NCBI GenBank assembly: GCA_028716725.1 | Contig: JAQUPG010000003.1 | Span: 11,512 to 75,511, forward strand | DNA: 64,000 nt | From: Patescibacteria group bacterium | Lineage (GTDB): Bacteria > Patescibacteriota > Patescibacteriia > Patescibacteriales > JAQTRU01 | Direction: 5' to 3' | Shown here: piece by piece, positions 11,403 to 50,316 of the stretch | Layout of the letters: every line of letters starts with the position of its first letter | How positions within the stretch are numbered: the stretch's first letter is position 1 | Notes under the pieces: generated by a model | The model's database searches: none | The model's input: only the letters and a program-made list of their open reading frames with translations | What the model was told of the DNA's origin: nothing | Position numbers and translations under genes: made by a program

Positions 11403-11415
11403 ATAGTATTTATAC

Positions 11416-11587
11416 TGTCATTGCGAGGCTCCGCCCTTCTTTTCCTATCATTGCGAGAAGCGTAGCGACGAAGCAATCTAACGCACAATGATTTTCATCT
11501 AAAGATTACATTTTGTGCCTGCGCATCATTCGTTAGATTGCCGCGTCAGTCGTCCCGAAGGCTCGGGACTCCTTCCTCGCAATGACA
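11416..11587. mobile_element. MITE-like nested-hairpin element with TGTCATTGCGAGG termini
   Basis: Terminal inverted repeats are tgtcattgcgagg (11416-11428) and cctcgcaatgaca (11575-11587). Internal IRs include gcaatctaacg/cgttagattgc and the hairpin GTCCCGAAGGCTCGGGAC (11552-11569). Confidence 0.6.
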
Positions 11588-11596
11588 AAATAAGAA

Positions 11597-11659
11597 GGCA
11601 AAACCGATAGTTTTCCAGAAGCGCCGGAAAGAAAAAAACCAAAAGTGGTGTTTGAGTAG
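11597..11659 (+). pseudogene. Displaced duplicate of the nitroreductase 3' end
   Basis: Encodes GKTDSFPEAPERKKPKVVFE*, against GKTDSFPEAPERKKPEVIFK* at 11340-11402. A hand alignment gives 51/63 nt identical. Confidence 0.7.
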
Positions 11660-15089: not shown

Positions 15090-15476
15090 GGGGATGCCAG
15101 GCATCGATAATGAGATTTCTTTCTAAACATTCCGGACGTGGCCGCGGGCTATTCACGTAAAACTGGCCCGCAAAATTCAAATGTCAACACATTTGTAAGC
15201 AAGGTCAAAACGGCTTTTGCCAGTTTGGCCTTTGCTCCCGCTATCGCTTAATAAAGCCATAGCCATCCGGCCGGTCGAGTCTTCATAGCCGGTACCGGGT
15301 GTCATTAATGAAGATAGATTTATAAATCGTTCTCGCTTATAAATTAAAACCAAGAGAACTGGTTATTATTGATTTTGCTTTGTTTCTACGGTAATAACGA
15401 GAAAATAAATAAAGCTATTCCTGTAAATATGTTTAGAAGAACTTATTAGACGTGGGTTCGATTCCCACCATCTCCA
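15090..15476 (+). ncRNA. ssrA: tmRNA (one-piece)
   Basis: The 5' GGGGATG pairs with the 3' CATCTCC. T-arm is GTGGGTTCGATTCCCAC. The internal tag frame reads ...AAA ACG GCT TTT GCC AGT TTG GCC TTT GCT CCC GCT ATC GCT TAA TAA (..KTAFASLAFAPAIA**, stops at 15249-15254). It is adjacent to smpB. Confidence 0.85.
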
Positions 15477-15477
15477 C

Positions 15478-34181: not shown

Positions 34182-34445
34182 TTATTTTATTTTTTGATTG
34201 AACAATTTATTAAGCCGTGATTTTTTCCGATTGCACGCATTTTTCTTTATTATACCTTTTTGCGCGGCCTTGTCAAGAGCTTTCATGGTCTCCCGAACAA
34301 GATCTTTCGCTTTGCCGTCTTTAGCTGCTATAGCTTTCCGGCTTTTTTTAATCAGATTTTTCAAATTTTCTTTAATCTTCCTGTTAAAAGCCGACCTTTT
34401 AACGCTTTTACGCAATTCCTTTTTAGCTGATTTAATGTTTGGCAT
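34182..34445 (-). CDS. rpsT: 30S ribosomal protein S20
   Basis: MPNIKSAKKELRKSVKR... Confidence 0.9.
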   Translation of the reverse strand: MPNIKSAKKELRKSVKRSAFNRKIKENLKNLIKKSRKAIAAKDGKAKDLVRETMKALDKAAQKGIIKKNACNRKKSRLNKLFNQKIK

Positions 34446-34480
34446 AATATTATAAAATTAAAAAATAAATATTTCTTAAG

Positions 34481-34555
34481 TCGGGGTGCTGGGATTCGAA
34501 CCCAGGATCTTCTGGTCCCAAACCAGACGCCCTAAGCCAGCTAGGCCACACCCCG
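34481..34555 (-). tRNA. tRNA-Pro(TGG)
   Basis: The reverse complement reads CGGGGTG..TCTGG-TTTGGGA-CCAGA..CTGGGTTCGAATCCCAG-CACCCCG-A. Confidence 0.9.
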
Positions 34556-34705
34556 ATAAATGGCAGGGACTCTAAAAAATCTGCAATCTAATAAAATCTG
34601 AAGTTATTATGGTGCCCCGGGTCAGAATTGAACTGACGACACAAGGCCCCGCAATACATTTGCTACGCAAATGAATGCGGGGTAAAATTTTCAGTCCGGC
34701 GCCTG

Positions 34706-34863
34706 TCCCGCCTCAATGCCGAGAAATAATTATCCCTCGGAAAATTTTAGATTTACAATTTTATGGTGCCTGGGGTGAGAATTGGACTCACGACACAAGG
34801 ATTTTCAGTCCTTTGCTCTACCACTGAGCTACCCAGGCCTTTTTACTCGGCATTGGAGCGGGA
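34706..34863 (-). mobile_element. 158-bp unit bounded by 18-bp inverted repeats and carrying the intact tRNA-Phe
   Basis: tcccgcctcaatgccgag (34706-34723) against ctcggcattggagcggga (34846-34863), 16/18 complementary. Confidence 0.4.
34764..34838 (-). tRNA. tRNA-Phe(GAA), CCA encoded, atypical T-loop TCCAATT
   Basis: The reverse complement reads GCCTGGG-TA-GCTC-AGTGGTA-GAGC-A-AAGGA-CTGAAAA-TCCTT-GTGTC-GTGAG-TCCAATT-CTCAC-CCCAGGC-A-CCA. Confidence 0.85.
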
Positions 34864-34955
34864 CTCTACCACTGAGCTACCGAGGCCCTAAAAATGCAAA
34901 ATTATTGTGAAAATTAATTCGTCGCTAACCGAGTTGTTAATTTTTAATTTCTATG

Positions 34956-35028
34956 TTGCGGGGGTCGGATTCGAACCGACGACCTCCAGGTTATGGGCCT
35001 GGCGAGCTGCCAGCTGCTCTACCCCGCG
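34956..35028 (-). tRNA. Initiator tRNA-fMet(CAT)
   Basis: The reverse complement reads CGCGGGG...CCAGG-CCCATAA-CCTGG...CCCCGCA-A. It has the C1xA72 mismatch and A11:U24. Position 33 is C. Confidence 0.8.
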
Positions 35029-35107
35029 ACGTATTCAATTAATAATTACGAATTATCAATTACGAACTTGAAGCTCTATTCATAACTCGTAATTGTTAAT
35101 TGATTTG

Positions 35108-35181
35108 TGGGCGTACATGGACTCGAACCATGGACCTCGTCCTTATCAGGGACGCGCTCTAGCCAACTGAGCTATACGCCC
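35108..35181 (-). tRNA. tRNA-Ile(GAT)
   Basis: The reverse complement reads GGGCGTA..CGTCC-CTGATAA-GGACG..CATGGTTCGAGTCCATG-TACGCCC-A. Confidence 0.9.
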
Positions 35182-35373
35182 ATACCCCCAATATCAATAT
35201 ACCATTTTTGCCAAAAAACAAGAAAAAGCTCTCTTTAAAAGCTCGATAATAATATAACAGAGAAAAAACAAAAAGGCAAGGGTTAGAAAAAATATTTTCT
35301 ATTTGCCCCCAACCTTTAAATTATCCTCTCTCTCTGATATAATAAATAGTATAAAAATCATTTTAAAAAATAT

Positions 35374-50218: not shown

Positions 50219-50316
50219 ATTCTGCCTCCTTGATAAAGGGCCTGCCTGCCGGTAGGCAGGGGTTAGGGGGATTTATGGCTCTACGCTCAAGCCCGGAGTC
50301 GGCGACAGTTGGTAAA

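Follow-up and report, generated by a model that had tools for sequence, protein, structure and literature searches.

What does it mean to find a complete tRNA gene inside another gene for the same tRNA? The question is raised by 277 nucleotides on the minus strand (34886 to 34610) of a 64,000-nucleotide stretch of contig JAQUPG010000003.1 from a Patescibacteria group bacterium, hereafter the window, in which an intact tRNA-Phe gene (the inner gene) lies between the halves of a second, interrupted tRNA-Phe gene (the outer gene). A sequence-only reading of the window had favoured a dead host gene replaced by a mini-element carrying a tRNA, and had also pointed to a likeness to archaeal split and tri-split tRNA genes. 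We favour, with a probability of about 0.72, an account in which the outer gene is the dead former resident, the inner gene is its functional replacement, and the replacing sequence spread in a homing-like manner guided by homology. The dead and replaced host gene is borne out by an empty site in a relative, lineage-specific decay of the outer copy and near-invariance of the inner one (1/72 variable columns), whereas a multicopy mini-element is not supported, no further copy of the repeat or the hairpin having been found.

An interrupted tRNA-Phe gene and its empty site

All ten segments that had been read along the minus strand are present at the positions given to them. Comparisons refer to the uninterrupted tRNA-Phe gene of a relative, L109, described below.

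34864 to 34886, minus strand: outer 5' part, acceptor strand and D arm, positions 1-24; 23/23 identical to the L109 gene
34846 to 34863, minus strand: left inverted-repeat arm TCCCGCTCCAATGCCGAG, pairing with 34706-34723
34839 to 34845, minus strand: inner-tRNA leader, 7 nt, TAAAAAG, varying at 3/7 columns among alleles
34764 to 34838, minus strand: inner tRNA-Phe(GAA) with encoded CCA, 75 nt, the putative functional gene (ARAGORN; Rfam tRNA, 71.5 bits)
34724 to 34763, minus strand: inner-tRNA trailer, 40 nt, AT-rich, the most variable segment (11/44 columns)
34706 to 34723, minus strand: right inverted-repeat arm CTCGGCATTGAGGCGGGA, partner of the left arm
34698 to 34705, minus strand: CAGGCGCC, read by comparison with the intact L109 gene, where GAG is followed by CAAAGGACTG
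34687 to 34697, minus strand: outer anticodon-arm remnant GGACTGAAAAT, positions 29-39, intact in this genome
34647 to 34686, minus strand: imperfect GC-ended hairpin, 40 nt, between outer positions 39 and 40, unique in the window
34610 to 34646, minus strand: outer 3' part, comprising the 3' anticodon-stem strand, variable loop, T arm, acceptor 3' strand and CCA
34480 to 35181, minus strand: the tRNA array Ile-fMet-[Phe]-Pro that contains these segments, upstream of rpsT (34182-34445), with the same order in relatives

A short-word BLAST search with the inner gene recovers only two partial copies in the window, the outer 5' part at 34886-34864 (22/23 matching) and the outer 3' part at 34646-34610 (32/37). 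ARAGORN and Rfam call one tRNA-Phe(GAA) here, the inner gene, and the intron-mode search that had been proposed for the outer tRNA fares no differently, as ARAGORN on the genomic sequence returns the inner gene alone. The finer description of the two genes holds: the outer acceptor halves pair at 7/7 positions (one of them G-U), the inner and outer T stems differ in a compensated way, and the T loops read TTCAATT in the outer and TCCAATT in the inner gene. The predicted fold of the 277 nt (z = -6.3 against shuffled sequences) contains the outer acceptor stem, a repeat stem around the cloverleaf, the hairpin and the outer T arm.

Relatives were gathered through the GalT-like protein encoded beside the array (100% down to ~64% identity) and their loci, designated here by L numbers, were fetched; the alignment comprises eight distinct nested alleles. 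A scan of species-representative genomes based on rpsT returned distant relatives only (<=58% identity), without the tRNA array. The empty site that had been suggested as a test is found in L109 (GCA_028711415.1; GalT 81% identical), which has an uninterrupted outer-type gene at the orthologous position. This single tRNA-Phe consists of GCCTCGGTAGCTCAGTGGTAGAG, CAAAGGACTGAAAAT and CCTTGTGTCGTCAGTTCAATTCTGACCCGGGGCACC in direct succession and stands behind a homologous spacer. The outer gene of the window matches it at 23/23 positions in the 5' part, 11/11 in the anticodon remnant and 36/36 in the 3' part, whose acceptor strand pairs with 34886-34880. Measured against this intact gene, the outer gene is damaged in three places. 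A 158-nt insert follows G24, GGCGCC replaces A27-A28 in the anticodon stem's 5' strand, and the 40-nt hairpin separates T39 from C40. Within CAGGCGCC, CA represents resident positions 25-26 and GGCGCC stands for A27-A28; this segment is polymorphic and reads TAGGTGCC in some relatives.

The 277-nt sequence is 100% identical in two NCBI Patescibacteria metagenome-assembled genome (MAG) assemblies, and the nested architecture recurs in >20 contigs (JGI, ENA, NCBI) from different samples and assemblers, with lineage-specific substitutions. With at least 20 independent assemblies showing it, the locus is no assembly artefact, and a chimera of two tRNA-Phe strain variants is hardly credible. Two Logan short-read contigs of the same organism do end at 34634-34641, just 3' of the hairpin, as a chimera might lead one to expect; these ends may instead come from allele heterogeneity or from a break that the hairpin induced in the assembly graph.

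Decay, replacement and polymorphism in relatives

The outer copy has decayed differently from lineage to lineage. In L097 and L113 it has a D-loop indel, GGAGGAGAAAAT as anticodon loop and a 3' end reading CACCC. In L115 it carries GGAGAAGAAAAT, has lost the anticodon, and has a T loop of TTTAATT and a T-T mismatch in the T stem, while in L099-L104, L111 and L116-L118 (the L099 group) GGAGAAGAAAAT is accompanied by a ~80-nt GC-rich hairpin in the T loop. Exons and anticodon are therefore not conserved among relatives of the same architecture: the anticodon loop has been destroyed in all of L097, L113, L115 and the L099 group, with damage to the outer T arm as well in the last two. With the anticodon lost in three of five lineages, the outer gene is not a conserved tRNA-Phe.

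The inner gene presents the opposite pattern. Its one variable column across the eight nested alleles is a T-loop base, the CCA end being variable, and its sequence is the sole tRNA-Phe at the locus in the simple alleles L088 and L093, which supports the inner gene as the working tRNA-Phe. The C55 of its T loop also occurs in the single-copy tRNA-Phe genes of L088, L093 and L119, so that it is neither a pseudogene sign nor an argument against inner function.

In one population at species level, simple and nested alleles coexist beside an identical GalT-like protein (P0002), which accompanies nested alleles L087, L089, L094 and L096 as well as simple alleles L088 and L093. The simple alleles have a single inner-type tRNA-Phe (TCCAATT) in the position of the outer gene; its first nucleotide is T in L093 and G in L088, a single-nucleotide polymorphism or an error. 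Between nested and simple alleles the downstream flank and the upstream tRNA-fMet are identical, whereas the Met-Phe spacer and the tRNA-Phe region are strongly diverged. This confinement of the divergence indicates the footprint of an imported or converted tract. The locus thus displays both the presence/absence polymorphism and the tract conversion that characterize a homing cassette.

Two types of resident gene can be distinguished. Type A (acceptor GCCTCGG/CCGGGGC, T stem GTCAG/CTGAC) is the outer gene of the window, L094 and L097, and type C (GCCGAGG/CCTCGGC, GTGAG/CTCAC) that of L115 and the L099 group. The outer acceptor pairs at 7/7 positions in every allele, with two acceptor pairs and one T-stem pair compensated, which by itself might hint at selection for structure; because both types also exist as uninterrupted genes (type A in L109 and L120, type C in L119 and L121), selection in situ is unnecessary to explain the compensated pairs. 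Insert, junctions and hairpin do not differ between type A and type C backgrounds, indicating that the insert moved or was copied by homology. The simpler reading of these alignments would be that one insert entered, or recombined into, two pre-existing alleles; independent transposition into the two is less likely. The stretches that type A and type C alleles share are 18 nt of the D arm (GGTAGCTCAGTGGTAGAG) and 11 nt of the variable region (CCTTGTGTCGT), and the confinement of exchange to these stretches suggests break-induced, homology-guided copying rather than ordinary RecA exchange.

The inverted repeat is present as described: the 18-nt left arm TCCCGCTCCAATGCCGAG has one partner in the window, at 34706-34723, with two mismatches (0.03 expected by chance). 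The arms pair over as many as 19 bp, or over 25 nt at 84%. Across seven alleles the repeat helix is 93% paired, with one compensated pair and G-U intermediates on the tRNA strand; its centre is unpaired and drifts among alleles. From this pattern of pairing, G-U intermediates and compensation, the 19-bp stem probably brackets the inner pre-tRNA in the manner of an rRNA processing stalk. No significant inverted repeats surround the replacement tRNA-Ile and tRNA-Pro genes of relatives, which leaves tRNA-Phe as the one case with the repeat. A 5-bp CCGAG direct repeat around leader, tRNA and trailer was considered as a target duplication in an older 48-nt hairpin and set aside, being degenerate in other alleles; the 40-nt trailer itself, in which a weak promoter-like site lies, includes a small CCGAG...CTCGG hairpin.

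The 40-nt hairpin is invariant, with 0/40 variable columns across the eight nested alleles against 26/107 (24%) in the non-tRNA parts of the insert, a result with a chance probability of ~1.5e-5 by a simple binomial. Since the hairpin is confined to the nested locus in JGI metagenomes, concerted evolution with other copies is no explanation for its invariance, and it may be a cis site for mobility or processing. A plus-strand promoter-like site, TTGCTA-17-TAAAAT (34660-34688), overlaps it and matches the consensus weakly. Its end stems, CCCCGCA/TGCGGGG, have the sequence of the acceptor strands (3' and 5') of the tRNA-fMet next to it, and the termini of the tRNA-Phe repeat, TCCCGC...GCGGGA, equal the stems of hairpins at tRNA-fMet in relatives. 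Both stems, TCCCGC/GCGGGA and CCCCGCA/TGCGGGG, match the two acceptor strands of tRNA-fMet in 3'-then-5' order, but a permuted tRNA was set aside as the flanks do not fit.

Similar replacement with leftovers is found at each of the other three array tRNAs, in one lineage or another. The states of the array tRNAs are mutually independent, as the window is nested at Phe only, L109 at Met only, and L099 at both. Nested-style tRNA-fMet is found in the L099 group, L109, L111, L119, L120 and L121, and old tRNA-Pro remnants in L093, L094 and L110, including the following loci:

L099, 1588-2120: nested-style tRNA-fMet
L109, 2090-2700: nested-style tRNA-fMet
L119, 1290-1870: nested-style tRNA-fMet
L120, 1310-1790: nested-style tRNA-fMet
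L121, 2240-2830: nested-style tRNA-fMet
L110, 1640-1830: tRNA-Pro remnant
L094, 985-1190: tRNA-Pro remnant

The tRNA-fMet loci open with remnants of an old tRNA-fMet, a 94-nt unit truncated to its 5' part and present in one to three copies, in which 16-nt hairpins of the form TCCCGC-N4-GCGGGA stand in place of the D loop and of the 3' anticodon strand. In most loci these copies are followed by an intact tRNA-fMet and, 1-2 nt further on, by the ATG of an open reading frame (ORF) of 86-106 aa that encodes a GIY-YIG catalytic domain only (Pfam, 4e-13), with no DNA-binding domain. The exception is L119, in which the annotated ORF starts inside repeated tRNA-fMet 3' remnants that lie between the ORF and the intact gene. 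The stop codon lies in the anticodon loop GGCCCATAA of an old 3' remnant in most loci; in L121 the ORF has its own stop upstream of the remnant. Given this placement, tRNA processing may release the ORF as a leaderless mRNA. In relatives a GIY-YIG ORF of 91-93 aa is located at tRNA-fMet and not at tRNA-Phe. A separate ORF of 144 aa (MRLFS...) begins 2 nt beyond the CCA of a tRNA-Phe, single or outer, in L110 (2246-2250), L099 (~1190) and L115, and is absent from the window and L109.

At tRNA-Ile, old fragments with a GC-rich insert containing CAGGCGCC lie around a different intact tRNA-Ile in L110 (2560-2810). At tRNA-Pro, the three relatives named above have an old 5' part with a 20-nt palindrome, CCTGCCTGCCGGCAGGCAGG, in the D arm, followed by a different intact tRNA-Pro. 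Two minus-strand ORFs of the window are separated by a short spacer that contains a GC-rich hairpin, GCCTGCCTGCCGGTAGGCAGGGG, at 50240-50262; this hairpin differs little from the palindrome that L093 and L094 carry in their dead tRNA-Pro and may belong to a family of small palindromic elements. A scan of the window for GC-rich islands found its coding regions full of them.

As for the wider setting, ARAGORN and ORF reading place the nested tRNA-Phe in the minus-strand order Ile-fMet-[Phe]-Pro, then rpsT, with holA/murD on one side of the array and the GalT-like gene followed by a PBP1 gene on the other. Elsewhere in the window, positions 11410-11600 hold nested inverted repeats built on cattgcgag / ctcgcaatg motifs, including cgacgaagcaatc, which resemble miniature inverted-repeat transposable elements (MITEs) or repetitive extragenic palindromic (REP) elements. 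Positions 15090-15477 hold an ordinary-looking transfer-messenger RNA (tmRNA) gene with the tag peptide GPQNSNVNTFVSKVKTAFASLAFAPAIA, followed by tRNA-Leu and tRNA-Gly.

Probable homing-like replacement and its rivals

In the account that we favour, a break in the resident tRNA-Phe gene would have been repaired from a diverged donor, with a complete tRNA and short flanks copied in. The insert would at once have destroyed an essential resident gene and supplied its replacement, and the insertion would have been viable because the insert carried the same tRNA. Double-strand-break repair or gene conversion would then have spread it to at least two resident alleles, in a homing-like fashion. The break would have been made by a nuclease acting on the tRNA genes of the array, and the GIY-YIG protein of relatives is a candidate for that nuclease by analogy. 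At the RNA level, the array would be transcribed as one precursor in which the 19-bp stem closes around the inner pre-tRNA; RNase P and 3' processing would free the inner tRNA, and the outer halves would be discarded, not joined. A wider version, in which selfish cassettes with a complete tRNA gene land in cognate resident genes of the array and spread through homology-guided repair, the fMet version carries a minimal, leaderless 91-aa GIY-YIG gene, the hairpins (that of 40 nt among them) serve as cis sites for the nuclease or for RNA processing and the nuclease-less Phe element is mobilised in trans, is tentative, and we regard it as possible yet doubtful.

Several observations weigh against this account. 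The repeat arms have no other copy in the window, nor does the 36-nt hairpin core; in JGI metagenomes the hairpin occurs solely inside nested tRNA-Phe (7/7 loci), and both the hairpin and the junction between outer gene and repeat have 0 matches in viral contigs. As neither repeat nor hairpin is multicopy, the two resident backgrounds are left as the one argument for mobility. There is no target-site duplication, the flanks reading GTAGAG and CAGGCG where the intact gene has GTAGAG directly followed by CAAAGG, and the window has no nuclease, transposase or integrase inside the element or next to it. The homology arms available for gene conversion are very short, at 11-18 nt. The outer exon segments of the window and L094 still equal a functional gene with an intact anticodon loop, so that the pseudogene status in this genome rests on structure and relatives and not on decay of its own. 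If the hairpin were pure junk, its perfect conservation would not be expected, and a second tRNA-Phe gene could lie elsewhere, only 64 kb of the genome being visible.

A working outer gene, interrupted in the manner of a tri-split tRNA, would have to remove its inserts and join three exon pieces, or hold them together through the stems as a non-covalent complex. The exon identity just noted fits this idea, as do the acceptor and T stems that are paired in all alleles but one with compensated differences, the outer acceptor stem kept in the minimum free energy (MFE) fold, and breaks at 24/25 and 39/40 beside a long junction helix that recall archaeal split tRNAs. The resemblance, which had been raised as an alternative to a dead gene, proved superficial. 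A bulge-helix-bulge (BHB) motif was not found in the MFE or centroid folds: the 19-bp helix starts directly at G23/C182 without 3-nt bulges, and the hairpin stem likewise abuts exon nucleotides. Removal of both inserts on paper, which had been said not to restore a canonical anticodon stem, indeed leaves 4 extra nt and two C-U mismatches; given the spliced sequence, ARAGORN has to assume another 'intron' of 5 nt, and the stem that results contains a C-C mismatch and two G-U pairs. With lowered thresholds it proposes a 'tRNA-Tyr' that uses the hairpin loop as anticodon, which we rejected as nonsense. Neither a group I signal nor a cloverleaf supports splicing, relatives have lost the anticodon or the CCA, broken the T stem or taken up the 80-nt T-loop insert, the compensated pairs are those of pre-existing resident alleles, and simple alleles in the same population do without an outer gene. 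A functional outer tRNA is therefore very improbable. Alternatively, the outer halves and repeat could be retained as an RNA processing scaffold, with an RNase III-type stalk and an outer tRNA mimic marking the 3' cut for a leaderless mRNA. The 93% paired helix with its G-U intermediates and compensated pair, the invariant hairpin, and the ORFs of relatives that begin 1-2 nt after a tRNA 3' end (GIY-YIG and the 144-aa ORF) would suit such a role. However, simple alleles manage without a scaffold, no ORF follows the outer 3' end in the window, an ORF follows in L115 and the L099 group although the outer T arm is disrupted there, and the helix centre is unpaired and drifting; we consider this explanation unlikely.

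A purely local history, in which tandem or triple tRNA-Phe duplication was followed by deletions and drift with neither mobile DNA nor transfer between genomes, could draw on the 94-nt tRNA-fMet remnant unit, amplified in tandem to between 1 and 3 copies in relatives, and on an element that is single-copy and has no transposase or target-site duplication. Yet the inner and outer genes represent distinct alleles whose differences are compensated, each of them a single gene in other lineages, and the outer halves are one gene split at one point rather than two decayed copies. Local duplication would also leave unexplained the identical insert and junctions in two resident backgrounds, the 18-19-bp inverted repeat that bounds the inner gene, and a spacer upstream of tRNA-Phe that is strongly diverged between identical flanks, a pattern typical of imported DNA. 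These points make it quite unlikely. The known classes of insertion likewise do not account for the locus. Rfam, scanned permissively over 34300-35300 (E up to 10), gave the four tRNAs and chance matches and no group I intron, ribozyme or small RNA (sRNA) family; a group I intron was rejected on this absence of signal and on the insert positions, 24/25 and 39/40. Terminal inverted repeats of the kind that define a MITE or transposon are present (16/18 matching), but with no target-site duplication and no copies in other contexts in the window, JGI metagenomes or viral contigs this class was rejected as well. An integrase-type insertion was rejected because there is no integrase and because both 5' and 3' fragments flank the new gene within 277 nt. 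The 277 nt contain no ORF, tblastn found no GIY-YIG homologue in the window, and phage blastn matched only the tRNA itself, with no sign of phage origin. Defining features of introns, split tRNAs, MITEs and integrase insertions having been tested and found absent, the locus is not a member of these classes; it works most like a nuclease-less homing cassette.

Comparison with known systems

In the literature searched, there is no description of nested tRNA genes, of a complete tRNA inside its cognate gene, or of hairpin-substituted remnants in Patescibacteria. Among the closest parallels is phage T4 SegB, a free-standing GIY-YIG homing endonuclease encoded in a tRNA gene cluster (PMC2330249, PMC13096335). 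As in SegB-type systems, relatives have a small GIY-YIG gene inside a tRNA array, and there is presence/absence polymorphism, with neighbouring tRNA sequence replaced by that of a donor and tRNA segments amplified in tandem. Unlike those systems, the element in the window has no nuclease gene, the protein of relatives is a 91-aa catalytic domain alone, a nested gene with leftover halves takes the place of clean co-conversion, and the host is a bacterial chromosome and not a phage.

Integrating elements also leave tRNA gene fragments, through attL/attR duplications (PMC9897764). Here too, foreign DNA would have hit an essential tRNA gene and brought a replacement, with a non-functional fragment beside an intact gene. 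Integrases, however, leave a 3' fragment only, which forms a direct repeat at the distal end of a large element, whereas the present locus packs 5' and 3' halves and the complete 75-nt gene between them into 277 nt and contains neither integrase nor cargo. The hairpins have a likeness of another kind, as relatives' dead tRNA genes contain imperfect GC-ended hairpins of 16-80 nt. Short GC-rich palindromic mobile elements invade genes elsewhere, among them the GC clusters of yeast mitochondria and the palindromic elements of Rickettsia; the 40-nt hairpin differs from them in being single-copy in everything searched.

Within the same phylum, tRNA genes of Patescibacteria carry group I introns that are self-splicing, >200 nt long and located at position 35/36 in the anticodon loop (PMC13011429). 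These share with the present locus interrupted tRNA genes that standard annotation misses, and differ from it in that the window has no group I signal and has inserts of 158 nt and 40 nt at 24/25 and 39/40. For annotation, tRNA halves in Patescibacteria arrays should be treated with caution as relics. If our account is correct, an essential single-copy tRNA gene in a minimal genome was overwritten by foreign DNA without loss of function, with both halves of the victim remaining, and the small GIY-YIG nuclease and the conserved hairpins are pointed to as candidate machinery.

Archaeal split, tri-split and multi-intron tRNA genes have been explained by a model of mobile-element origin (PMC3293823, PMC3218864). 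As in archaea, the breaks lie near 25/26 and near the anticodon arm, complementary sequence stands beside the breaks, and variation inside a natural population points to mobile DNA as the cause of the disruption. Unlike the archaeal genes, the outer tRNA-Phe has no BHB and no reconstituted cloverleaf, has decayed, and encloses a complete replacement gene. The relatives nonetheless provide a natural bacterial series, from intact genes through freshly interrupted ones to decayed halves, which resembles the first steps proposed on the way to archaeal split tRNAs, and which in these bacteria ends in decay, not splicing.

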